DNA of 51,745 bases, taken from the NCBI GenBank assembly GCA_041164085.1, contig JBEAQC010000001.1:1-51745 (forward strand), written 5' to 3'. The DNA comes from Actinomycetota bacterium. Its GTDB lineage: Bacteria; Actinomycetota; Actinomycetes; S36-B12. The notes under the pieces were generated by a model. It was not told where the DNA came from. It saw only the letters and a list, made by a program, of their open reading frames with translations, and ran no database searches. The stretch's first letter is position 1. Each line of letters opens with the position of its first letter. The position numbers and the translations under genes were made by a program. Positions 15,141-26,176 of this stretch are shown in pieces.

Positions 15141-16541
15141 TCAGATCACCGGACGCGGTGCCGGATGCACGGACTCGTAGGCACGGGCCGCACGCAGGAC
15201 CGTGACATCGTCATGCGCACGGCCGACGATCTGCAGCCCGACCGGCAGTCCCGCTGAGGTCAGCCCGCACGGCACGGTGATGGCTGGCTGCTGGGTGAGA
15301 TTGAAGGGATAGCTGAAGGGCGTCCACGACAGCATGGACTCGGGTGTCATCGGCACTGCACCGGCAGGGCGAGCCTCGAAGGCCGGGATCGCGACCGCGG
15401 GGGTCACCAGGACGTCGTATCGCGTCATGAAGTCACGCATCGAGGTCCCCAGCGCGTTGCGCTTAAGGGTGAGCAACTGCACGTCCTGGGAGCTGAACTC
15501 CGCGCCCTGGTCCGCCTGCGCCGCGAAGTCTGGATCGGTGACGGCCTGCCCCTGCGGCCCGAGTGAGTCGTAGACCGTCTTGGACGCGACGAACCACAGC
15601 CCGGTCGAGATGTCGAGCGGATCCTCGAAGCCCGGATCGACCTGCTCGACGAGGGCACCGAGCGACTCGAGTTCGCGCACGGCCGCCTCGACAAGTCCGG
15701 CCACCTCGGGATCGACCTTGGCGTAGCCAAGGGTCGGCGAGTAGGCGATACGCATGCCACGGATACCCGCATCGAGATCGACGAGGTAGTCCACACCGTC
15801 GTAGGGCAGGGACGTCCAGTCGCGTGGGTCCGGCTGCGCGATGACATTCATCATGAGCGCGCAATCCATGACGCTCATGGTGTGGGGGCCGACATGCGCC
15901 ACGCTGCCGAAGGGTGACAGGGGGTACGCCGGCACGCGCCCAAAGCTCGCCTTCATGCCGACGTTGCCGCAGAAAGCGGCGGGGATGCGGACACTTCCCG
16001 CGCCGTCGGTGCCCATGCTGAGCTGGCCCAGACCAGCGGCGATTGCAGCAGCCGTGCCGCCGGAGGATCCGCCGGGCGTGCGCGTGGGATCCCAGGGATT
16101 ACGGCTGATGCCGGTGAGTGGGGAATTGGTCTCGGCCTTGCACCCGAACTCCGGTGTGGTGGTCTTGCCGAACATCGCGGCTCCGGCATCACGTAGACGC
16201 GCGACCGATGGCGCGTCGGCGTCCCACGGTTGGTCCGGACTGATCGCGCGGCTGCCGCGCAGGGTCGGCCAGCCCTTGGTCCACAGGATGTCCTTGATGG
16301 TGGTCGGCACTCCCTCGACCGCACCGACGGGCGATCCGTCCCGACGGTGGGCGACCCAGCGGTCCTCGCTCGCCCGCGCGGCTGCGAGGCCAGCGTCGGC
16401 ATCGACGAGGATGAAGGCGTTGATGAGCGGATCCACGCGCTCGACCCGCTCGAGTGTCTGCTGCATCGCCTCGACAGGGGAGGCCTCGCCGGTGCGGTAG
16501 AGCTCGATGAGCTCGGTGGCGGTGAGTTGGGTGAGATCCAT
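15141..16541 (-). CDS. Amidase-signature family amidase
   Basis: GVPTTIKD, GGSSGG, GTDGAGSVRIPA. Likely start ATG 16541 (MDLTQL). Confidence 0.93.
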   Translation of the reverse strand: MDLTQLTATELIELYRTGEASPVEAMQQTLERVERVDPLINAFILVDADAGLAAARASEDRWVAHRRDGSPVGAVEGVPTTIKDILWTKGWPTLRGSRAISPDQPWDADAPSVARLRDAGAAMFGKTTTPEFGCKAETNSPLTGISRNPWDPTRTPGGSSGGTAAAIAAGLGQLSMGTDGAGSVRIPAAFCGNVGMKASFGRVPAYPLSPFGSVAHVGPHTMSVMDCALMMNVIAQPDPRDWTSLPYDGVDYLVDLDAGIRGMRIAYSPTLGYAKVDPEVAGLVEAAVRELESLGALVEQVDPGFEDPLDISTGLWFVASKTVYDSLGPQGQAVTDPDFAAQADQGAEFSSQDVQLLTLKRNALGTSMRDFMTRYDVLVTPAVAIPAFEARPAGAVPMTPESMLSWTPFSYPFNLTQQPAITVPCGLTSAGLPVGLQIVGRAHDDVTVLRAARAYESVHPAPRPVI

Positions 16542-16594
16542 GCGCGGAGTCTGCCAGCGGACCCCGGTTCCGGAATTCCCCTTGCACTCTGAGG

Positions 16595-16608
16595 TACCCC
16601 TGGGGGTA
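16595..16608. promoter_or_regulatory. CsoR/CstR-family operator palindrome, copy 1, overlapping a sigma-70-type promoter
   Basis: TACCCC-TG-GGGGTA; TTGCAC 16582-16587 and TATGCT 16607-16612; ATG 16619 six nt after the -10. Confidence 0.72.
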
Positions 16609-16618
16609 TGCTGATAGA

Positions 16619-17131
16619 ATGGTCGAGACCGCACCGAAGAAGCCCGGCGGGCCGGCGAAGCCGTCCCTGTCGGGCTGGACCGCTCGCCGCTGGCGCGTGG
16701 CCGTGCTCGGAGGCGTCGCCACGGCCATCCTCGTGGCGCTGCCGACCGCTGTGATCCCCAATCCGGTCTTCGGCCGGGCGATCGAGGTGACCTGGTGGTC
16801 CTACCCCATCGTGGTGCTCACCGGCATCCTGGGCGGACTCCTCATGGCGACCTACGTCAAGGAGCCGTGGCAGACCGACACCGAATCCACAGGCGAGGCA
16901 GGGGAGGAAGCCAAGGCGTCCAAGCTCGGCATCGCCGGTGCCTTCGTCGCCTACTTTGCCGTGGGCTGCCCGGTCTGCAACAAGCTCGTGCTCATCGCGC
17001 TGGGCACGTCCGGTGCGATGACATGGTTCGCGCCCGTGCAGCCGTTCCTTGCGGTGGCGTCGGTGATCCTCATGGCGGTCGCCCTGCGTATCCGGCTGAG
17101 GAATCAGATCAGCTGCTCAGTCTCCGCCTAG
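16619..17131 (+). CDS. Small 4-TM membrane protein with CxxC motif
   Basis: Hydrophobic segments; FAVGCPVCNKLV; C-terminal SCSV; preceded by operator copy 1. Confidence 0.8.
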   Translation: MVETAPKKPGGPAKPSLSGWTARRWRVAVLGGVATAILVALPTAVIPNPVFGRAIEVTWWSYPIVVLTGILGGLLMATYVKEPWQTDTESTGEAGEEAKASKLGIAGAFVAYFAVGCPVCNKLVLIALGTSGAMTWFAPVQPFLAVASVILMAVALRIRLRNQISCSVSA

Positions 17132-17913
17132 GCGATGACGACCTGGATGCCACGCGCATCGAGCGCGCTCGCGACGTCTGTCGTGATCCCGTCGTCGGTG
17201 ACGAGCACGTGCACGGCGCTGAGCGGTGCGATGCGTCCCGGCAGCACTCGACCCACCTTGCTCGAGTCCGCGACCACGATGACGCGCTCCGCCCGCTCGA
17301 GCAGCACGGCGTTGGTACGGGCCTCGACCGGATCATGCGTGGTCAGGCCCTCAGCTAGATCGATCCCGTCGACCCCGATGTATGCCGTTCCGATGCTGGC
17401 CTGAGCGAGCGCCGACTCTGCCCAGGGGCCGACGAGCTCGGTGCTCTGCGAGCGTGCGACACCCCCGGAGACCACGACACGGATGCGCGGCTTGGCCGCC
17501 ATTTCGCTGGCGATATTGAGCGCATTGGTGACGACGACCAGGTCCAGGCGAGAGGAAAGCACGCGCGCGATCTCACTGGTCGTCGTGCCGCCAGTGAAGC
17601 CCACGGTCTGCGGCCCCGAAGGGAGGAGTTTCGCGGCTGCGGCCGCGACGGCGGCCTTCTCCTTCTTCGAACGCCTATCGCGGTAGGCGACGGGGAGTTC
17701 GGTGCTTGATTCGGTCGGGACGGCGCCGCCGTAACGGCGCGTGCACAGGCCCTGCTCTTCGAGAATGGCGAGATCACGGCGCAATGTCGCCTGCGAGACA
17801 CCGAACTCTGCCGCGAGATCGGTCGCGTGCACTTCTCCATGCTCGCGCAGGCGGACGAGGATGGCGGCCATGCGCTCGCCGCGCAGGGCGCCGTCAGCGG
17901 AGCGGGCGGGCAT
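17128..17913 (-). CDS. DeoR/GlpR-family transcriptional regulator
   Basis: HTH LAAEFGVSQATLRRDL..RRYGGA; GGTTT, VVTNALNIA, VADSSK. Confidence 0.93.
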   Translation of the reverse strand: MPARSADGALRGERMAAILVRLREHGEVHATDLAAEFGVSQATLRRDLAILEEQGLCTRRYGGAVPTESSTELPVAYRDRRSKKEKAAVAAAAAKLLPSGPQTVGFTGGTTTSEIARVLSSRLDLVVVTNALNIASEMAAKPRIRVVVSGGVARSQSTELVGPWAESALAQASIGTAYIGVDGIDLAEGLTTHDPVEARTNAVLLERAERVIVVADSSKVGRVLPGRIAPLSAVHVLVTDDGITTDVASALDARGIQVVIA

Positions 17914-17949
17914 GACCCCTCCGGCGTGGGACGGCAGGTGCGGGGTCGG

Positions 17950-18066
17950 CTAGCGGCAGGTGCAGCGCTGAGGCTCGGGGATCTGCGCCATGACCTGATC
18001 GACGTGCTCGCCACAACCGGACCAGGTGACCTTGCCGCAGGAGTGGCAGGGAGCGGGGCTGCACAT
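17950..18066 (-). CDS. Unannotated 38-aa Cys/His-rich peptide MCSPAPCHSCGKVTWSGCGEHVDQVMAQIPEPQRCTCR
   Basis: Translated by hand (below the ORF-track size). RBS AAGGAG at 18075-18080; fills the intergenic gap; has its own promoter/operator; 6 Cys and 2 His. Confidence 0.85.
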   Translation of the reverse strand: MCSPAPCHSCGKVTWSGCGEHVDQVMAQIPEPQRCTCR

Positions 18067-18090
18067 GGGTCGTTCTCCTTCTCTCGGGTC

Positions 18091-18117
18091 CGACGAGTAT
18101 ACCCCCTGGGGTATTCC
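18091..18117 (-). promoter_or_regulatory. ECF promoter (GGAAT-N17-CGTCG) containing operator copy 2
   Basis: Minus strand reads GGAATACCCCAGGGGGTATACTCGTCG; palindrome ATACCCC-CT-GGGGTAT at 18099-18114. Confidence 0.72.
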
Positions 18118-18168
18118 GATCGCACCGTGGCGGGGTCACCCGGTCCCCCGATGTGGTGTCATCGGCAC

Positions 18169-18711
18169 ATGATGCCCCTGGGCACCCTCGATGTCACCCC
18201 TGCGCTCGAGCGTGTGGATCTCCTGGCGACTCCGACGGCCGCCGCTCTCGAGAATTGGAGCGAAGCGGACTCCGTCGGTGTGGCCCCCATCGACGCCGAC
18301 CTCGCCGACACCGCAGCCTTCTGCGCGGCCTATGCCGTGCCGCTGGAAGCGTCGGCCAACTGTGTCGTCCTTTCCGGCAAACGCGAGGGCCAGGTGCGCA
18401 TGGCCGCGTGCCTGGTGCTCGCAACGACGCGCGCTGACGTCAACGGTGTCGCGCGCCGATGGCTCGACGTCCGCAAGATCTCCTTCGCCTCGATGGACGA
18501 TGCCGTGGAGATGACGGGGATGGAGTACGGCGGCATCACGCCGATCGGCTTGCCGTCAGATTGGCCCATCCTGGTGGACTCCCGCGTCGTCGAGCAGCCG
18601 GCCATCGTCATCGGAAGTGGTGTGCGCCGATCCAAGATCGTGTTGCCTGGAGCGGCGATCGCACAGTACCCGGGCGTGCATGTCATCGATGGGCTCGCGA
18701 ATTCGGCCTAG
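18169..18711 (+). CDS. YbaK/EbsC (aminoacyl-tRNA editing) family protein
   Basis: SANCVVL, RADVNG, TGMEYGGITPIGLP, GSGVRRSK. The ORF track over-extends the start. Confidence 0.88.
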   Translation: MMPLGTLDVTPALERVDLLATPTAAALENWSEADSVGVAPIDADLADTAAFCAAYAVPLEASANCVVLSGKREGQVRMAACLVLATTRADVNGVARRWLDVRKISFASMDDAVEMTGMEYGGITPIGLPSDWPILVDSRVVEQPAIVIGSGVRRSKIVLPGAAIAQYPGVHVIDGLANSA

Positions 18712-18736
18712 CCTGCGCACCGGCGGCGCCTGACCG

Positions 18737-19816
18737 TCAGGGGGCGGGGGCGAAGAAGGTGGTCACCGCAATGGCGATCGCCTCGCTGAGGGTGTCCCGG
18801 AAACGCGGATCGCTCAACCGCGCGGCATCGCCCGGGTGGGAGAGGTAGCCCATCTCGACCCAGACGGTGGGCATCGTCGTCAGGCGCAGCAGATCCCAGG
18901 TGCGCGGGTGGCTTCGGCAGTCGGTGAGGTCCGTGCGGGTGCACACCTGCTCCTGAATGTGCTCGGCCACGACACGCGCCCCGGCGGAGTGCGGACCGCC
19001 GAGCGGTGCACCGAAATAGAACGTGGAGAAGCCATTGGCACCCGGCAATTCGACGCGCTCGACATGCAGGGATAGCAGCAGATCGGCGTTCGCGGCGTTG
19101 GCGTGGGACGCACGCTCCGCCTCGTTGACGAGCTCAGGCGTTGGCGTCCGGGTGTAGATCACCTGGGTGCCGAGCGCGGCAAGACGCCCCTCGATGCGCG
19201 CACACACGTCCGCCACAATCGCCGCCTCGGCGAGCGCATAGCGCTGGTCCGCGTCAGCACCGCCGGGATCGAGTGCGATCACCTTGCCGGCTACACCCGA
19301 TCGCATGGCGTCCATGGCCTGGCGCTCGCGGATCGCGACCGCATCGCCGTCACCGACGGTGCGCGTCAGGCGCTCGAGCGCCCAATAGGTCGTGAAGCCG
19401 CAGGTGCCATCGGGCTCCATGCCGACATTGCGCTGGAATTCGCGCAGCGCGGAGTCCGTCAGAGGGCCGAAGATCCCGTCGGGGCGCCCGCAGTCGAAGC
19501 CCATGCGCGTGAGGCGCTGCTGGAGGTCGAAGACGTCGTCGCCGCGGATGAGGTGGCCGGGGGTGAAGGCCAGGACCCGATCACCGAGCCCCCAGCGCGC
19601 CTCTTCGAGGTGCCGCATCGTCTGAGGACCGCAGATCCCATCGACGGAGATGCCGCGCTGCTGCTGGAAGGTGCGGACAGCGCGCTCGACATCGTCGTCG
19701 TACTCCGCATCATCCAGGGGCGACTCGGAGTCAGGATCGAGCAGGCGCAGTCGCACCAGGCGCGCGCGGATATCAGCGACTGCGACGCCGGTGTCCCCGC
19801 GGCGGAGGACGGCCAT
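18737..19816 (-). CDS. cwlM: CwlM-like N-acetylmuramoyl-L-alanine amidase with two peptidoglycan-binding domains
   Basis: LRRGDTG..FQQQRGISVDGICG and GDDV..FQRNVGMEPDG repeats; Amidase_3-like LLSLH, LLRLTTMPTVWVEMGY; located after trxA. Confidence 0.85.
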   Translation of the reverse strand: MAVLRRGDTGVAVADIRARLVRLRLLDPDSESPLDDAEYDDDVERAVRTFQQQRGISVDGICGPQTMRHLEEARWGLGDRVLAFTPGHLIRGDDVFDLQQRLTRMGFDCGRPDGIFGPLTDSALREFQRNVGMEPDGTCGFTTYWALERLTRTVGDGDAVAIRERQAMDAMRSGVAGKVIALDPGGADADQRYALAEAAIVADVCARIEGRLAALGTQVIYTRTPTPELVNEAERASHANAANADLLLSLHVERVELPGANGFSTFYFGAPLGGPHSAGARVVAEHIQEQVCTRTDLTDCRSHPRTWDLLRLTTMPTVWVEMGYLSHPGDAARLSDPRFRDTLSEAIAIAVTTFFAPAP

Positions 19817-19823
19817 CTAAGCC

Positions 19824-20147
19824 CTACTGCAGGAAGGGCTGCAGGTCGGCAAGGAGGGCAGCCTTGGGCTTTGCGCCGATGATGGTCTTGACGACATCGC
19901 CGCCGGAGTAGACGTTCATCGTCGGGATCGACGTGATGCCGTAGGACGCGGCCGTCTTGGGGTTCTCGTCGACGTTGAGCTTGGCGATGACGATCTTGCC
20001 GTCGTACTCCCCGGAGATCTCCTCAAGGATCGGGGCGACCATGCGGCATGGCCCGCACCACTCGGCCCAGAAGTCGACGATGACAGGGATGTCGCTCTTG
20101 AGGACGTCGGCATCGAAGGATGCGTCGGTGACGATCTTGGTGGCCAT
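19824..20147 (-). CDS. trxA: Thioredoxin
   Basis: DFWAEWCGPC, SIPT. Confidence 0.98.
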   Translation of the reverse strand: MATKIVTDASFDADVLKSDIPVIVDFWAEWCGPCRMVAPILEEISGEYDGKIVIAKLNVDENPKTAASYGITSIPTMNVYSGGDVVKTIIGAKPKAALLADLQPFLQ

Positions 20148-20189
20148 GGTTCTCCTTCCGGGGCAGTCTCACCCTACGGGTGCGCCCGC

Positions 20190-21122
20190 CTATTCGTGTG
20201 CAGCGAGGTAGCGCTCGGCGTCGAGAGCCGCCGAGCAGCCGGTGCCCGCCGCCGTGATGGCCTGGCGGTAGATGTGGTCCACAAGGTCTCCGGCTGCGAA
20301 GACTCCCGCGACATTGGTGCGCGTGCTGGGCGCCTCGACGAGGACGTAGCCGTTGTCATCGACGGCGACCTTGCCCTTGACGAGTTCGGAGCGCGGATCG
20401 TGGCCGATCGCGATGAACAGGCCCGTGATCGGCAGTTCGCGCGTCTCGCCCGTGACGGTGTCCTTGAGCACGACACCGCTCACCTTGGCGTCACCGAGGA
20501 TGTCGACGACCTCGGAATTCCAGGCGAAGTGGATCTTCGGATCGCTGAAGGCACGCTCCTGCATGATCTTGCTCGCGCGAAGCGAGTCGCGGCGGTGGAT
20601 CAGGGTGACCGACTTGGCAAAGCGCGTGAGGAACGTCGCCTCCTCCAGCGCGGAGTCGCCGCCGCCAACGACCGCGATGTCCTGATCGCGGAAGAAGAAG
20701 CCGTCGCAGGTCGCGCACCATGAGACGCCATGACCGGATAGCCGCTTCTCGTTGGGCAGATCGAGTTCGCGGTAGCCCGAGCCCATGGCCAGGATCACTG
20801 AGCGCGCTTGGTACTCCCGGCCGCTGCCATCGCGCACGGTCTTGATGCCACCGTCGAGTTGGACGTCGACGACGTCATCGGTGATCATCTCGGCGCCGAA
20901 TCGCACGGCCTGGGCCCGCATCTCCTCCATGAGCGCGGGGCCCATGATGCCGTCGCGGAAGCCGGGGAAGTTCTCGACCTCGGTGGTGTTCATGAGTGCG
21001 CCGCCCGCGGTGACCGCTCCTTCGAAGACGAGGGGGTTGAGCTGTGCACGCGCGGTGTAGATCGCCGCGGTGTAGCCGGTCGGGCCGGATCCGATGATGA
21101 TGACGTCGCGGACGTCGGACAC
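20190..21122 (-). CDS. trxB: Thioredoxin reductase
   Basis: [42 protein letters not shown]. Start GTG 21122 with GGAG RBS. Confidence 0.98.
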
Positions 21123-21191
21123 AGTGCACGCTCCAGGGTCGATATCGACGATCATCCTGCCGGGCCGGGCGTCGGCCCGACTAGGCGCAGT

Positions 21192-21218
21192 CAACGAGAG
21201 TACCCCTCGGGGTATTCC
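21192..21218 (-). promoter_or_regulatory. SigH/SigR-type promoter (GGAAT-N18-GTT) containing operator copy 3
   Basis: Minus strand reads GGAATACCCCGAGGGGTACTCTCGTTG; TACCCC-TC-GGGGTA at 21201-21214. trxB is a known SigR/SigH target in actinobacteria. Confidence 0.82.
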
Positions 21219-21224
21219 CCCGCC

Positions 21225-22136
21225 CTAGCGGAGAGGCAGATCCCAGTGGCGGGCAGCGACGACGTCGTCGTCCGTGCACGCCTGGCCGACGGCCACGACG
21301 TGCAGGCTCGCGGGCTGACCCGCGCGATCGAGCTGGCTGGCCGTCACGATGACACTGCCCTCGCGGCCGTCGATCGTGGCCGTGTCGAGCACGAGTGGCA
21401 CCGAGCCGGGAGCCAGACCGAGTCGCTTCATGCAGTCGGCCAACGCCTCAGGGCTCGAGGCCAGGCCGACACCGGGCATGGCGGTGGGTGACGGTGACGC
21501 CGTCATCGCGGTCGCGACCGCTGAGCCATCCGACATACCCGCATCGGCGAGGAGGGTGATGACCTGGGCGGGCAGCCCATCCATGGTGTAGTCCGTCCCG
21601 GTCGACACCATCGCGCGCGGCATGACCGGCTCAGCGATGACGGCAGCGGCTCCCTCGGGATTGCTCGGCGTGGCGACAGGTTCAGGTGCGGGCGAGGCAT
21701 CGGACGGCTGCGGTGCGGCGACCGTGGGCGTGTCGACACCGGACTCGACACCGGGTTCAGCGGAGGCGGCGACCAGGGGCTGCGATGTGGGCGCACCGTC
21801 GGCGACCGGGGCAGGGTCGGCGGAGCGCAGTGAGGGGAGCACGACCGCCCCCACCAGGGCGACACCCGCGGCCCCCGCAAGGATCGGCAGGACACGGCCG
21901 CGACGTCGGCGGGCCCGCGCGGCAGCGAGGTCGACGGGGCCCGACAGAGGCGGCTCAGCCGAGTCGCTGGCCGGAGGCACGGCGCTCGGTGCGAAGGCTG
22001 GCTCGGAGGCCAGGCGGGCCTCAAGGTTCGCCCACACATCAGCGGGCATGGCATCGGGCTCATCGCTGGCGAGCCACGCCGCAAGATCGGGGTCGAGGGG
22101 TGGCAGGTCACCGGAGAAGTCATCTCCCTGACTCAT
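21225..22136 (-). CDS. Anti-sigma factor (RsmA/Rv3912-like), single TM
   Basis: Overlaps the sigM stop; MPADVWANL helix, VDLAAARARRRR+TM, SGTDYT-like motif, two C-terminal Cys. Confidence 0.75.
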   Translation of the reverse strand: MSQGDDFSGDLPPLDPDLAAWLASDEPDAMPADVWANLEARLASEPAFAPSAVPPASDSAEPPLSGPVDLAAARARRRRGRVLPILAGAAGVALVGAVVLPSLRSADPAPVADGAPTSQPLVAASAEPGVESGVDTPTVAAPQPSDASPAPEPVATPSNPEGAAAVIAEPVMPRAMVSTGTDYTMDGLPAQVITLLADAGMSDGSAVATAMTASPSPTAMPGVGLASSPEALADCMKRLGLAPGSVPLVLDTATIDGREGSVIVTASQLDRAGQPASLHVVAVGQACTDDDVVAARHWDLPLR

Positions 22137-22777
22137 GCTCCACCTCCTGTCGATCCCGGTCCGCGCGTCGTGATCTCGTCGTTATCCGGGGGTACGACGG
22201 CACCTGTCCCCTCCTGGTTCCGCAGATGGGCGAGTCTCTCCGCGAGCTTGGCCCGGCCACGGAAGCAGCGGCTCTTGACCGTTCCGACCGGGCACTCCAG
22301 GGCCTTGGCAGCCTCCTCGACCGACCAGCCCTCGAGGTCGACCAGGACGATGGCGGCGCGCTGGTCGGGGGGCAGCGTGTCGAGGGCGGCCCGGACCTCC
22401 GCAACGGTCTCGTTGGTCTCGGCGGCCGCCCGGGGGTCGGCGAGTCGGGACTGGTCGACCAGTGCGGGCCCCTCGCCCTCCTCGGGCAGCGGCACCCAGG
22501 CGCGCACGGAGCGCCGGCGCAGCCTGTCCAGTGAGGCATTGACCACGATGCGGTGCAGCCACGTGGTGACGGCGGAGTCCCCGCGGAAGGTGTCGGCCCG
22601 GCGGTAGGCGGAGATGAGCGCGTCCTGGAGCGCGTCGCTGGCTTCCTCGGGATTGCCGGTCGTGCGCAGGGCCACCGCCCACAGGCGGTCGCGGTGGCGC
22701 CGGACGATCTCGGTGAAGGCATCGGGATCACCCGCGCAGTGTGCGGCGAGCAGTTCGCTGTCGGTCTGCTCGTTCAC
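22133..22777 (-). CDS. sigM: ECF sigma factor SigM
   Basis: RHRDRLWAVALRT, DALQDALISA, FRGDSAVTTWLHRIVVN, GTVKSRCFRGRAKL; conserved position between murJ/kinase and trxB. Confidence 0.92.
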   Translation of the reverse strand: MNEQTDSELLAAHCAGDPDAFTEIVRRHRDRLWAVALRTTGNPEEASDALQDALISAYRRADTFRGDSAVTTWLHRIVVNASLDRLRRRSVRAWVPLPEEGEGPALVDQSRLADPRAAAETNETVAEVRAALDTLPPDQRAAIVLVDLEGWSVEEAAKALECPVGTVKSRCFRGRAKLAERLAHLRNQEGTGAVVPPDNDEITTRGPGSTGGGA

Positions 22778-22799
22778 GTGGCGAGCCTAGTGCGGACGA

Positions 22800-24302
22800 T
22801 CAACGGAAGACGATGACGTCGCGCAGGCCACCTTCGTAGACACCATCCACGAGGGGGAGCTGCGTGAACCAGATGAGCACATAGCGACCGACGACAGGTC
22901 GCGGGGCGCGCAGGTCGATGGCGGTCCCGATCCCCTGCGCGCTCGCGAGTGGTGTCCACTTGCTCGTCTTGCGGTAGGGCTCGGGTGCGACGAGAACCGC
23001 GACCGAGGAGCCCGAGCCGACCAGCTCCAGTCGCACGGCGCTGACCGGCAGCGACTCGCCGAGGTCGAGTACGAGGCCGGTGCCGGGCTTGCCGCCGAGA
23101 TCGGCGGAGTAGTAGGTGTCGGTGGTCCACGCGGTGTCGGAGCGCTCATCGATCGCGTTGGGCACGAGCTCGGGCATCTCCTGCCCGTCGCCGCGCGGGT
23201 CGAAGTCGATCGCGCTCACCGGGGTCAGCTCACCTGGATTACCGCCGAGGTCGGTGGAGGTGGAGACCTCGCCGGTGGCGGTGAGCACGTCGATCGGCGC
23301 CCCCGAGGCGGTCACACCCCATGGCGACTCGGCACTCTGGGCCAGGCGTAGTCCGGCCAGACCCACGCCGGCGACAGCGACGAAGGCCGCGGCCGCGAGT
23401 GCGGCGCGTCCGAGCACACGCAAGGCGCGTCGTCCGCCGCCCGCATCGGTTCTATCCCGCGGGGCCAGGCTCAGCGTCCGCCTGCCGGGGCGCTGCTCCC
23501 ACGCGGTGAGTGCACTCACGATGGCTGCGACGTCGGGGTAGGCGTCGATCCGCTGGTCACCCGTCGCCTCAGGACCGATGGCGCGCATGCAGATTTCGTC
23601 CATGGCCGGGGGTACGTCGGCCACGACCTGGGACGGCGGGAGCAGGCGCTCGCCGATGCGCGGTGCGGGGGACATGCCGTCGACGAGGCCGAGTGGCCAG
23701 CGGCCGGTGAGCATGGCGTAGAGGAGCGAGCCGATTCCGACGAGGTCGTCGTTGCCCGGTCCCTCCTCGGGCCAGAGCGCGGCATCGACGGCAAGCCCGC
23801 GGATTCGCACGACGTTGGTGTCGCCGAGCAGCGTGAAGGGATCGTCGAAGTCCGCGGTCTCGGCAATGAGCAGCGATCCCGGGCGCAGTCGCCGGTGGTG
23901 TACCCCGAGCTCGTGGCTGTGCTGGAGCGCGATGGCCACCTGTCGCATCACCGGCACGACCTCATCGATCTCGATCGGCTCACCCTCACGCTCTTCGTAG
24001 ATGTCCGTGAGGGTGCGGCCCTCGACCCATTCACTGACGATGACGAGGTAGCCCTGTGATGCGGACGGGTCGCCGTCGCCCGAGGTGAGGATGTCGAGCA
24101 CCGCGATGACGCGGCGGTCATCGACGGTGGCCGCCCCGCGTGCCGCAGCCTCGGCAGCCGCCGCCCGGGGGTCGCTCACGGGGACGAGTCGGATCGACAC
24201 CGGCCGGTCCAGTGTCGGATCGAAGCCCTGCCACAACTCGACCGTCCCGGTCTGGGAGACCAGGACGTCGAGGATGTAGCGGCCGATCCGCCTGTCGCTC
24301 AC
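22800..24302 (-). CDS. Membrane pseudokinase with extracellular carbohydrate-binding-like C-terminal domain
   Basis: Kinase-like GRY..D.TLDRPV, VSEW, YAMLTGRWP but HRRLRP and RIRG in place of HRD and DFG; one TM; C-terminal GLVLDLG..RYVLIWFTQLP. GTG 24302 overlaps the murJ stop. Confidence 0.8.
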   Translation of the reverse strand: MSDRRIGRYILDVLVSQTGTVELWQGFDPTLDRPVSIRLVPVSDPRAAAAEAAARGAATVDDRRVIAVLDILTSGDGDPSASQGYLVIVSEWVEGRTLTDIYEEREGEPIEIDEVVPVMRQVAIALQHSHELGVHHRRLRPGSLLIAETADFDDPFTLLGDTNVVRIRGLAVDAALWPEEGPGNDDLVGIGSLLYAMLTGRWPLGLVDGMSPAPRIGERLLPPSQVVADVPPAMDEICMRAIGPEATGDQRIDAYPDVAAIVSALTAWEQRPGRRTLSLAPRDRTDAGGGRRALRVLGRAALAAAAFVAVAGVGLAGLRLAQSAESPWGVTASGAPIDVLTATGEVSTSTDLGGNPGELTPVSAIDFDPRGDGQEMPELVPNAIDERSDTAWTTDTYYSADLGGKPGTGLVLDLGESLPVSAVRLELVGSGSSVAVLVAPEPYRKTSKWTPLASAQGIGTAIDLRAPRPVVGRYVLIWFTQLPLVDGVYEGGLRDVIVFR

Positions 24303-26176
24303 TCCTCGAGGGTACGGGCGTCGCCCGCTGCTTTGCCGGATGAGCGGCGCCACACCTTGCGTTGGATCAGGCTCACCACGTCGCCCACCTCATGAATGCG
24401 CATTGCCCACGCCGCAGCGAGATAGACGCCGAGCCCCACGGCACCGAGTACGACGACATCGATGAGGACCCCGAGAGTGTTGGCGGGGTTGTCTCCGGTG
24501 ACGAAGGCGGTGAGCGCCGCCTCGGTCCCGAACATGACGCAGAAGGCGATGAAGCCGGCGATGAGCATGCGCAGGAGAGACCGGACAGTGGCCCAGGAGT
24601 CCAGGCCGCCGAGGCGTCGGGCGAGCAGGATCCACGCGAGCACGAATGTGGCCCAGAAGCCGCAGACATAGCCGAAGGCCAGCGCTGCGACCTGGGCCCC
24701 GCCGCTCACGGCGTAGAACAGCGGGACGGCGACCCCGAGCGCAACGACGTTCATGAGCAGGCTGGCGAGGAACGGTGTGCGCGTGTCTTCGACGGCGTAG
24801 AAGCCACGGAAGAGCACGTAGAAGAGCGTGAACGGAAGCAAGCCGAGCATGAAGACGCTCGTGATGAGACCGGCGAGCTGCGCCTGGTCCGGCGTTGCTG
24901 CACCGTAGCCGAAGAGCAGGATCGCGATGCCGGGACTGACGATCATGAGCACTGCGCCGATCGGGATGATCAGCGCGGCAACGAGACGCATTGCCCCCGA
25001 CACGTCGGCGCCGACCTGCTTCAACCTCCCAGAATGCGCCACGCGGCTGAGTGCAGGCAGGAGTGCGGTCACGATCGACACGGTGATGACGCTGTGCGGG
25101 AGCATGAAGATGAGGTGCGCCTTCTGGTACGTCGTCAGGCCCGCGGGAGTCGTGCCCGCAGCCGCGGCGTTGACGTTGGCCAGCGTGGCGAGTCGTGTGA
25201 TCACGACGTAGCCGGCCTGATTGACCACGACTAGCAGCAGGGTCCAGATTGCGAGGTGACCGGCCTTGCCGAGACCCGAGCCGCGCCAGTCGAAGCGCGG
25301 CCGCCAGCGGTAGCCCGCCCGCATGAGCACGGGGATGAGGATGAGCGCCTGCAGGGCGACGCCGAGAGTGGTGCCGATGCCGAGGATCGCGATCTGATCC
25401 GGAGTGAGGACCCCGTCGGCTGCGGCCGAGGTGCCGGCGATCGCGATGAAGAGGAGGAAGGTCGCGATCGCGACGACGTTGTTGAGGATCGGCGCGAACA
25501 TCGGGGCGCCGAATCGACCGCGAGCATTGAGCACCTGACTCAGCAGTGCGTAGATGCCGTAGAAGAAGATCTGCGGCAGGCACAGTCGGGCGAAGGCGGT
25601 CGCGAGAGCACGCTGGGAATCGTCGTACGCCGACGTGGCGTAGAGATCGACGAGGATGGGTGCAAGAAGCACCGCGGCGATCGAGAAGACGAGCAGCACG
25701 AGCCCGGCGAGCGTGATGAGCCGATCGGCGTAGGCCTGTCCACCGTCGGCGTCATCCTTCATCCGGCGCACGAGTTGGGGAATGAAGACAGCGTTGAGCG
25801 CTCCGCCGATGATGAGGATGTAGAGGACGTTGGGCATCGTGTTGCCCAAGGAGTAGGCGTCCGAGACGAGGTAGAAGCCGAGGGCCGCCGTGAGCGCGAT
25901 GTCGCGGCCGACGCCGGTGACCCGGGAGATCACCGTGCCGGTGGCCATCACCGCACTCGACCCGATCAGCGATCGTGTGTCGGCACGCGCCGTTTGCTCT
26001 GTGCTCGCCTCGTCGGAGATGCGGACCGGCTCGATCGACGGGGCTACGGCTGCCTCGATCGGGCCCGAGGGCGCGGCGACGAGGGCAGGATCGGCGCTCG
26101 TCCCATCCCCGTCGGGGTAGCCCGATGGAGGCGGCTCTGCCGACTCGCCGGGCGCATCGGTCGGTCGGTCGCTCAT
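24299..26176 (-). CDS. murJ: Lipid II flippase MurJ (MviN)
   Basis: SAVMATGTVISRVTG, NTMPN..GGALNAVFIP, PQIFFYG, RGFYAVEDTRTPF; about 14 TM segments. Confidence 0.96.
   Translation of the reverse strand: MSDRPTDAPGESAEPPPSGYPDGDGTSADPALVAAPSGPIEAAVAPSIEPVRISDEASTEQTARADTRSLIGSSAVMATGTVISRVTGVGRDIALTAALGFYLVSDAYSLGNTMPNVLYILIIGGALNAVFIPQLVRRMKDDADGGQAYADRLITLAGLVLLVFSIAAVLLAPILVDLYATSAYDDSQRALATAFARLCLPQIFFYGIYALLSQVLNARGRFGAPMFAPILNNVVAIATFLLFIAIAGTSAAADGVLTPDQIAILGIGTTLGVALQALILIPVLMRAGYRWRPRFDWRGSGLGKAGHLAIWTLLLVVVNQAGYVVITRLATLANVNAAAAGTTPAGLTTYQKAHLIFMLPHSVITVSIVTALLPALSRVAHSGRLKQVGADVSGAMRLVAALIIPIGAVLMIVSPGIAILLFGYGAATPDQAQLAGLITSVFMLGLLPFTLFYVLFRGFYAVEDTRTPFLASLLMNVVALGVAVPLFYAVSGGAQVAALAFGYVCGFWATFVLAWILLARRLGGLDSWATVRSLLRMLIAGFIAFCVMFGTEAALTAFVTGDNPANTLGVLIDVVVLGAVGLGVYLAAAWAMRIHEVGDVVSLIQRKVWRRSSGKAAGDARTLEE

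Follow-up and report, generated by a model that had tools for sequence, protein, structure and literature searches.

The characterised CstR-type sensors of the CsoR family come from a few Firmicutes and a single Streptomyces, and there govern one small sulfur-oxidation cluster. The Streptomyces coelicolor repressor ScCsoR (SCO0620) binds the 16-bp site ATACC-N6-GGTAT and represses pdo-tauE, rhod and its own gene; polysulfide releases it from DNA via Cys37, aided by Cys66, and sulfane sulfur can be reduced by thioredoxin (PMC7533328). In a sequence similarity network (SSN), cluster 3, which includes ScCsoR and Rv1766, holds 3,175 largely uncharacterised candidate actinomycete persulfide sensors with an x-C-x-C motif, and passages of the same paper give a 15-bp core for the Streptococcus mitis cst operator and state that CstR leaves DNA after tetrathionate-induced disulfide formation (PMC8643695). 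Here we analysed a 51.7-kb actinomycete contig (C1, hereafter the window) of assembly G000, which comprises 1.68 Mb in 157 contigs with 68% G+C and has a rated completeness of 68.85%. The window carries three 14-bp palindromes upstream of genes for Cys-motif proteins, and we put the probability at roughly three in four that these palindromes are operators of a single actinomycete CstR-like repressor of the CsoR family, whose gene would lie in the unassembled part of G000. Together with its relatives, the window would supply a concrete regulon for this large actinomycete branch.

The palindromes and the genes behind them

The palindrome TACCCCNNGGGGTA occurs exactly at 16595-16608, 18100-18113 and 21201-21214 and nowhere else in the window, compared with 0.00 occurrences expected from 100 dinucleotide-preserving shuffles. 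The three TACCCC-N2-GGGGTA sites reported in an earlier sequence-only reading of the window are thus non-random, and each lies between genes and 5' of a gene, as that reading had it. Operator 1 (TACCCCTGGGGGTA, 16595..16608) lies between an amidase gene and the gene for a 170-aa membrane protein with ~4 predicted transmembrane helices and a GCPVCNK motif (CPVC membrane protein, 16619..17131, plus strand), with 10 nt between the end of the site and the ATG of the latter. Operator 2 (TACCCCCTGGGGTA, 18100..18113) lies between a divergent YbaK-like gene on the plus strand and the gene for a 38-aa Cys-rich peptide with seven Cys (MCSPAPCHSCGKVTWSGCGEHV..., 17950..18066, minus strand), and ends 33 nt from the ATG of the peptide gene. 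Operator 3 (TACCCCTCGGGGTA, 21201..21214) is embedded in the promoter of the thioredoxin reductase gene trxB (20190..21122, minus strand; Pfam Pyr_redox_2, 163 bits), 11 nt past the stop codon of the upstream gene and about 66-78 nt from the trxB start. The likely start is the GTG at 21122, and the open frame continues further 5'. Immediately 3' of trxB is trxA (19824..20147, minus strand), which encodes a 107-aa thioredoxin (Pfam Thioredoxin, 110 bits). Both composite promoter strings quoted in the sequence-only reading, GGAATACCCCGAGGGGTACTCTCGTTG on the trxB side and GGAATACCCCAGGGGGTATACTCGTCG on the peptide side, were found on the minus strand.

Across the whole of G000, the exact pattern was found six times and the reversed control pattern once; one additional near-site, TACCCCCCAGGGTA, brought the total to seven. 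The distance between site and downstream start codon ranged from -1 to about 70 nt for all seven sites. None was inside a gene body, and one overlapped the final codons of the upstream open reading frame (ORF). Equal frequency of the motif within coding DNA, which the sequence-only reading had named as a reason to abandon its proposal, was not observed. A crude gene caller based on G+C content at third codon positions placed three of the seven sites within ORFs, which was rejected on inspection as a longest-ORF artefact: the three were 5' over-extensions, a wrong-strand ORF, or the last codons of an upstream ORF.

Outside the window, the other four sites stand before genes of sulfur and thiol chemistry and the gene for a further Cys peptide. 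The site on contig C40 precedes a 488-aa fusion of metallo-beta-lactamase and rhodanese domains, the architecture of bacterial persulfide dioxygenases (PDO); that on C44 precedes a second thioredoxin gene, whose ATG starts at the last base of the site; that on C114 precedes a 64-aa paralog of the 38-aa peptide; and that on C130 precedes an AhpD/CMD-family protein. None of the seven sites precedes a copper gene (copA, copZ or other). Listing the downstream genes had been suggested as the way to tell CstR-like from copper control, and since a PDO-rhodanese gene carries a site and no copA or copZ gene does, the outcome points to a CstR-like system rather than a copper system. The common operators also bear out the placing of trxB-trxA and two uncharacterised Cys proteins in one regulon.

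Sites were also listed in the genus, for which 18 congeners were compared, including the nearest genome G001 (94% complete) and G015 (97% complete). The relaxed pattern TACCC-N4-GGGTA matched 11 sites in G015 compared with one for the control pattern, and 10, 10, 7 and 1 sites in G001, G002, G016 and G009, respectively. The sulfur targets in G015 were PDO-rhodanese, a 105-aa rhodanese and a lipoprotein-like rhodanese; the redox targets were a 1-Cys peroxiredoxin, an AhpD-like gene, a thioredoxin and trxB; and the remaining targets were the 38-aa peptide, the 64-aa peptide, the CPVC membrane protein and the regulator gene itself. The sole site in G009 (L099, G009:C9:10968) abuts mid-PDO-like sequence (HFHNDY...), as if the 5' part of a PDO gene had been deleted.

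Both unannotated Cys-protein families are conserved. The 38-aa peptide matched no Pfam or NCBIfam family, its ESM Atlas neighbours were all unannotated clusters, and each of its 90 homologs was unnamed or 'hypothetical'. Residues W15, G17, C18, G19, H21, R34 and C35 (W-x-G-C-G-x-H and R-C) were invariant, and C2, C7 and C10 nearly so. Its AlphaFold2 (AF2) model showed a beta-hairpin and a helix with a predicted local distance difference test (pLDDT) score of 79.5; Foldseek gave no match in the PDB at E <= 0.001, and the weak top rows were small zinc fingers. For this peptide, a small Cys/His site with metal or redox activity may be guessed at, but no more than guessed. The CPVC membrane protein had no Pfam match and a weak MerT-like NCBIfam score (18.6 bits, compared with a cut-off of 150), and ESM Atlas gave unannotated clusters alone. 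It had 2944 homologs, all 'hypothetical' among the matches listed. Its G-C-P-V-C-N-K motif was invariant and located at a helix break in the AF2 model (pLDDT 67.5), which had no Foldseek match in the PDB at E <= 0.001. At locus L018, from another family, a CPVC homolog is the first gene of an operon with a thioredoxin, a rhodanese and a CstR-like regulator of the C-G-C type. The two families can be nominated for roles in persulfide or thiol metabolism.

The proposed CsoR-family regulator and its known relatives

Genes of the CsoR family (PF02583) were found in 12 of the 18 congeners, with exactly one copy in each. The encoded 92-aa proteins have invariant Cys38 and Cys67 and an x-C-x-C (C-G-C) motif without the copper-ligand His: in phmmer alignments, a Gly aligns to this His of Geobacillus CsoR (4M1P) and to Asn55 of Streptococcus pneumoniae CstR (7MQ1), the latter structure being matched with E = 7.5e-11. 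Given this replacement and the PDO-rhodanese target, the regulator is likely a thiol or persulfide sensor of the CstR type and not a copper sensor, one of the two possibilities raised from the window alone. Thirteen of the 18 congeners had operators at trxB or at the peptide gene, and 11 of them also yielded the regulator; of the five congeners lacking operators at both genes, one had the regulator. No statistical test was applied to this co-occurrence, since the genomes are related.

The regulator gene itself is preceded by the same kind of site. A 14-bp site was upstream of the regulator in all three same-genus loci first examined. A wider scan, which used one genome per species and an alignment of the C-G-C proteins as the query, yielded 80 loci from metagenome-assembled genomes labelled Nanopelagicales, Actinomycetota or Actinomyces and from Streptosporangium, Kineococcus, Actinomadura, Pseudonocardia, Phycicoccus, Micromonospora and others. 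In 71 of these loci, the 300 nt preceding the regulator gene contained the 14-bp pattern TACC[CT]-N4-[AG]GGTA, and in one locus they contained a 15-bp site. Further 14-bp sites among the 80 loci lay directly 5' of PDO-rhodanese genes, and in many actinomycetes PDO or rhodanese genes stand beside the regulator. Phycicoccus is one example of a genus with such further sites. At L177, L196, L200, L202 and L181, 14-bp sites also preceded thioredoxin genes and homologs of the Cys peptide, which makes the peptide family a predicted recurrent member of the regulon beyond the genus. The palindromes have the CsoR-family operator format, as the sequence-only reading had proposed, and equal the ATACC-N6-GGTAT site of ScCsoR. 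A C-G-C regulator, the 14-bp site before its gene in most loci and an operator of the ScCsoR format together argue for a CstR-like rather than a copper regulon.

The sequence-only reading had also linked operator length to the type of sensor. Among the first 12 loci of the order, all six high-scoring genes encoded C-H-C proteins, each with a 15-bp palindrome nearby, and all six lower-scoring genes encoded C-G-C proteins, with a 14-bp palindrome in four and none in two. The rule therefore stands within the order but fails for CstR in general, because the core operator of S. mitis cst is 15 bp. Within actinomycetes, it could aid the annotation of CsoR-family regulons.

Compared with ScCsoR, as far as the passages on it go, the system described here shares the 14-bp TACC-N6-GGTA core, two Cys without the ligand His, PDO(-rhodanese), rhodanese and self targets, and sites overlapping promoters. 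It differs in a predicted regulon that is about three times larger and dispersed, with 10-11 sites per congener genome, and that adds trxB-trxA, another thioredoxin, an AhpD-like protein, a peroxiredoxin and the two unannotated Cys-protein families. Moreover, no TauE-type exporter was seen adjoining the sites, each promoter has one site instead of two, the trxB site is within an extracytoplasmic function (ECF)-type promoter, and the regulator gene is beside DtxR and SDR genes and not pdo. The CstR proteins of Staphylococcus aureus, Enterococcus faecalis and Streptococcus spp. (SSN clusters 4 and 10) have, in the parts of the literature that cover them, the same CsoR-family fold, the same x-C-x-C dithiol sensor, a TA-flanked GC-tract palindrome, and control of sulfurtransferases and a persulfide dioxygenase. 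Unlike the regulator here, they form a separate sequence cluster with Asn instead of Gly at the 'Y' position; the streptococcal core operator is 15 bp, the cst operons are single loci, and the passages on them do not report control of a thioredoxin system. Copper(I)-sensing CsoR/RicR proteins belong to the same family and share the general operator design, but those of the order have C-H-C ligands, 15-bp sites and copA/copZ neighbours, none of which holds for the window system. Judged by its sequences, the known CstR/ScCsoR circuit occurs in this uncultured actinomycete genus as a variant with a broader, dispersed set of predicted targets.

In another family of the order (loci L081-L086, L080, L084, L094 and L095), the operator precedes genes for SLAC1/TDT-type transporters and YgaP-like transmembrane proteins. 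They are candidates for the exporter components that seem to be missing from the regulon of the genus.

Promoters at trxB and at the other targets

The SigR consensus is GGAAT-N18-GTT (PMC2375139), and the SigH consensus of Corynebacterium glutamicum is GGAAt-N18-19-GTT, with the trxB, trxC and trxB1 promoters being SigH-specific (PMC10012870, PMC5483222). The trxB promoter of the window has the same format (21193..21218, minus strand), with GGAAT at 21214-21218, GTT at 21193-21195 and GTTG from 21192. Operator 3 shares the T of GGAAT and occupies 13 of the 18 spacer positions. Among 26 same-genus trxB upstream regions, GGAAT was in register with the operator in 20, of which 17 had an intact palindrome and 18 had GTT exactly 18 nt past GGAAT. 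The palindrome was decayed in three genomes, and two of the three (G017 and G038) retained both GGAAT and GTT. The remaining six regions had none of GGAAT, GTT and the palindrome.

G000 also encodes a fitting sigma factor. At C40:22955-23993 (L048), a SigR-like ECF sigma gene (Sigma70_r2/r4_2) is followed by a gene for an RsrA-family zinc anti-sigma factor with an H-x3-C-x2-C motif (TIGR03988, 88.6 bits compared with a cut-off of 62.5). Upstream of the pair is GGAATGACCGATCCCCCCTGAGCGTTG, in the GGAAT-N18-GTTG format seen at trxB. The pair is ~16 kb from the operator-controlled PDO-rhodanese gene on the same contig. Because GGAAT and GTT were conserved even where the palindrome had decayed, and because the genome has its own SigR/RsrA pair with a promoter of the same format, we accepted for trxB a predicted promoter of the SigR/SigH type whose spacer contains the operator; the composite arrangement proposed for the window is thus conserved in relatives. 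The locus resembles the SigR-RsrA and SigH-RshA systems in its GGAAT-N18-GTT promoter and in the pairing of a sigma factor with an RsrA-family zinc-binding anti-sigma factor behind an autoregulatory promoter of the same format. It is unlike the SigR/SigH regulons in that a repressor operator fills the spacer of the trxB promoter, and in that most of the thiol-stress genes assigned to SigR/SigH regulons in other organisms (the thioredoxins) here pair the repressor site with a sigma-A-type -10 and not with an ECF promoter. In a literature search covering titles and the openings of abstracts, with few subscription journals, no CsoR-type operator at a trxB promoter was described.

Outside the genus, the composite arrangement is rare at trxB. 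The strict composite pattern was found in 18 of 301 genomes of the order and its reversed control in none, and beyond the genus it preceded trxB in G114 only. The other genes behind it outside the genus encoded a rhodanese and YgaP-like and SLAC1/TDT-type membrane proteins, and at L080 at least, GGAAT reads as one arm of an extended palindrome, GGAATACCC...GGGTATTCC.

The trxB leader contains a second conserved element, GGCAGGATG (21153..21161, minus strand), which was found in 24 of the 26 regions and was retained with or without the operator and GGAAT/GTT. It may belong to a second, constitutive promoter, with cAGGAT as the -10, or else act as an RNA element. In several congeners the ATG within it is not in frame with trxB, and it was therefore rejected as another possible start of that gene.

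The second ECF promoter of the sequence-only reading, at the peptide gene, was not supported. The operator was kept at this gene in 19 of 25 same-genus loci; GGAAT was present in G000 alone (18113-18117, minus strand; 1/25), and the would-be -10 there is GTC, which is not consensus. The conserved element is instead a TAnnnT hexamer (TATACT, TATAAT, TATGCT and others), which is opened by the last TA of the operator in all 19 operator-bearing loci. In G000 this is TATACT at 18096-18101 on the minus strand, a sigma-A-type -10 starting at the last TA of operator 2.

Similar arrangements were found at the other targets. The 64-aa paralog had operator-TAnnnT-N7-ATG in six of six loci, and the CPVC and AhpD-like genes had TAnnnT followed by six or seven nucleotides and the start codon. 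At operator 1, the last TA starts TATGCT (16607-16612), an arrangement kept in G015; because this box is 6 nt before the ATG at 16619, the transcript of the CPVC membrane protein is probably leaderless. The genes for the second thioredoxin and the lipoprotein rhodanese have the half-site TACCCT, with 7 nt between it and the ATG. TAnnnT is the general -10 rule of actinomycetes, and the -10 element of C. glutamicum is TANAAT. On the strength of this rule, we infer that these targets have promoters of the sigma-A type, at which the repressor would cover the -10 and several of which would give leaderless transcripts.

Three further GGAAT-N18-GTT sequences stood at promoter-like positions in G000, at C5:6041, C106:17679 and C130:860, upstream of SOUL/heme-binding-like, FtsH-like and CopA-like ATPase genes, respectively, as identified by eye from the N-terminal sequences. 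These genes are candidate members of a SigR regulon.

Mechanism, alternatives and genomic surroundings

From these sequences we infer repressor binding, inducer, transcription starts and gate logic as follows. A reduced CstR-like tetramer would sit on each operator and block RNA polymerase. At most targets the operator would overlap a sigma-A-type -10, either with its last TA beginning TAnnnT or with the TACCCT half-site itself serving as the hexamer. Persulfides or polysulfides, and perhaps other thiol oxidants, would modify Cys38 and Cys67, upon which the repressor would be released and the regulon expressed. In G000 the regulon would comprise PDO-rhodanese, trxB-trxA, the second thioredoxin, the AhpD-like protein, the CPVC protein and the two paralogous Cys-rich mini-proteins, with rhodaneses, a 1-Cys peroxiredoxin and the repressor gene added in congeners. 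For trxB to be transcribed from the upstream promoter under stress, the sigma factor would have to be free and the repressor released, as in an AND gate, and the conserved element downstream of the composite promoter may give basal expression, with a second start after GGCAGGAT. Such a circuit would tie reactive-sulfur sensing to the thioredoxin system and offer a simple way for a repressor and a stress sigma factor to share a promoter.

A more far-reaching proposal joins all of these elements. The CsoR-family dithiol sensor would be the master switch of cytoplasmic thiol-redox and reactive-sulfur defence, gating a SigR-type trxB promoter, using an operator that doubles as the -10 at leaderless genes, and commanding the 38-64-aa zinc-finger-like Cys-peptide family and the four-helix CPVC family as new persulfide-handling components, conserved in CstR-like regulons of several actinomycete families. 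Taken with all its parts, this joint proposal is tentative, and we consider it possible but on balance doubtful.

Several observations weigh against the CstR-like regulon or its gated trxB promoter. A profile search, together with tblastn with the congener protein, found no PF02583 gene in G000, an assembly that is 68.85% complete, and G001 and G010 carry operators yet gave no PF02583 match. In congeners the regulator gene is flanked by DtxR-like and SDR genes; G000 also lacks the DtxR-like neighbour, and its best SDR match had 34% identity over a partial alignment. In G001 the contig stops at an operator adjoining the DtxR-like gene, which is the expected place of the regulator. Because the DtxR-like neighbour is missing as well and the G001 contig breaks at this very locus, the absence of the regulator from G000 is best explained by assembly gaps. 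The congeners are kin, and the conservation counts thus reflect few independent events. Membership of the regulon differs between species, with a peroxiredoxin site in G015 and none in G000, and G009 keeps the regulator with a single operator, the other sites having been lost. The regulon is also heavy in general antioxidant genes (thioredoxin, thioredoxin reductase and AhpD, with peroxiredoxin in congeners), and the inducer may therefore be broader than persulfide. At trxB, a TAnnnT hexamer (TACTCT in the window) overlaps the composite promoter and is conserved in 18 of the 20 GGAAT-bearing loci, so that an ECF promoter is not the sole reading. Furthermore, genes for an ECF sigma factor and a putative anti-sigma factor directly upstream of trxB provide a second candidate sigma; the adjacent sigma factor could use the GGAAT/GTT promoter, or transcription could read through into trxB, and the sigma factor of the trxB promoter may therefore not be SigR.

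The breadth of the regulon leads to the alternative that the same repressor, on the same operators, is a general sensor of thiol oxidation or electrophiles (disulfide, peroxide or quinone) over a broad antioxidant regulon. The trxB-trxA genes, the second thioredoxin and AhpD-like targets, the 1-Cys peroxiredoxin of G015, the promoter that trxB shares with a disulfide-stress sigma system and the tetrathionate response of CstR described in passages of PMC8643695 would all suit such a sensor. The most widely conserved actinomycete targets are nevertheless PDO-rhodanese and rhodaneses, and by the passages of PMC7533328, the characterised relative ScCsoR responds to polysulfide and thioredoxin systems can serve persulfide reduction too. 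We regard a general thiol sensor as a minority possibility, to be taken seriously but improbable. Somewhat less probable still is a trxB promoter of the sigma-A type only, in which GGAAT and GTT would be flanking bases without ECF function and there would be no AND gate. The conserved TAnnnT hexamer at trxB, the pairing of all other regulon operators with TAnnnT and not with GGAAT, and the extended palindrome at L080, which shows that GGAAT can belong to the palindrome in other families, speak for it. It would leave unaccounted for the conservation of GGAAT 5' of the operator at trxB alone (20/26, compared with 1/25 at the peptide gene), the GTT at exactly N18 in 18 of 20 regions, and the survival of GGAAT and GTT after decay of the palindrome in G017 and G038; the trxB format also equals that of the genome's own sigR promoter, and trxB is a confirmed SigH/SigR target elsewhere.

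Regulators other than a CstR-like protein fit the palindromes poorly. The DeoR-family protein encoded downstream of the peptide gene could in principle bind them: G000 has no CsoR-family gene, and the DeoR gene is conserved behind an operator-controlled gene, which would suit autoregulation. The presence of a 14-bp site of the same format before the CstR-like gene in 71 of 80 loci from many actinomycete families, the match to the ScCsoR site defined experimentally in the passages cited above, and the tracking of the CstR-like gene by the sites within the genus (11/13 compared with 1/5) make this or any other non-CsoR regulator very improbable. A regulon under copper-sensing CsoR/RicR, in which the Cys peptide would buffer copper in the manner of a metallothionein, is if anything even less credible. 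The palindrome does look like the sites of Cu-CsoR/RicR, the RicR regulon of mycobacteria includes small Cys-rich peptides, and the C130 operator has a CopA-like ATPase gene ~430 nt away. That gene was rejected as a copper link, because a CsbD-like gene separates it from the operator; it has a GGAAT-N18-GTT-like sequence of its own, and no operator stands directly before copA or copZ. In addition, the sole PF02583 protein of the genus has Gly in place of the copper-ligand His, and the sites of copper-type CsoRs in this order are 15 bp long.

The remaining genes around the operators were surveyed as well. The DeoR-family gene (17128..17913, minus strand; Pfam HTH_DeoR and DeoRC) is 37 nt downstream of the peptide gene, an order kept in G015, and is possibly co-transcribed with it. 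The YbaK-like gene (18169..18711, plus strand; Pfam tRNA_edit, 73.6 bits), which encodes an aminoacyl-tRNA editing-domain protein, is divergent from the peptide gene also in G015, and its control by operator 2 is possible because the operator is 55 nt upstream of its start. Both genes may belong to the regulon. Downstream of trxA is a gene for a CwlM-like amidase (18737..19816, minus strand) with two PG_binding_1 domains and an Amidase_3 domain. On the other side of trxB, the 303-aa putative anti-sigma protein (21225-22136, minus strand), which belongs to no Pfam or NCBIfam family, overlaps the ECF sigma gene (22133-22777, minus strand; Pfam Sigma70_r2/r4_2/ECF). The minus-strand order at 18737-24353 is a 517-aa weakly kinase-like protein, the ECF sigma factor, the 303-aa protein, trxB, trxA and the CwlM-like amidase, which we take to resemble the mycobacterial mviN-sigM-anti-sigM-trxB2-trxC-cwlM neighbourhood.

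An Escherichia coli-type promoter and terminator scan of 16400-21400 gave two promoter-like matches and one terminator-like match, none at the operators and with no terminator-like site between the upstream gene and trxB; the matches were about as many as in shuffled sequences, and the scan is uninformative for a high-GC actinomycete. Sequences nearly identical to 16400-21400 were found in metatranscriptome contigs from several studies labelled marine, aquatic, freshwater and marsh, one run spanning the whole region, where DNA carry-over is possible. Given these matches from several studies, the population or its close relatives are widespread in waters.

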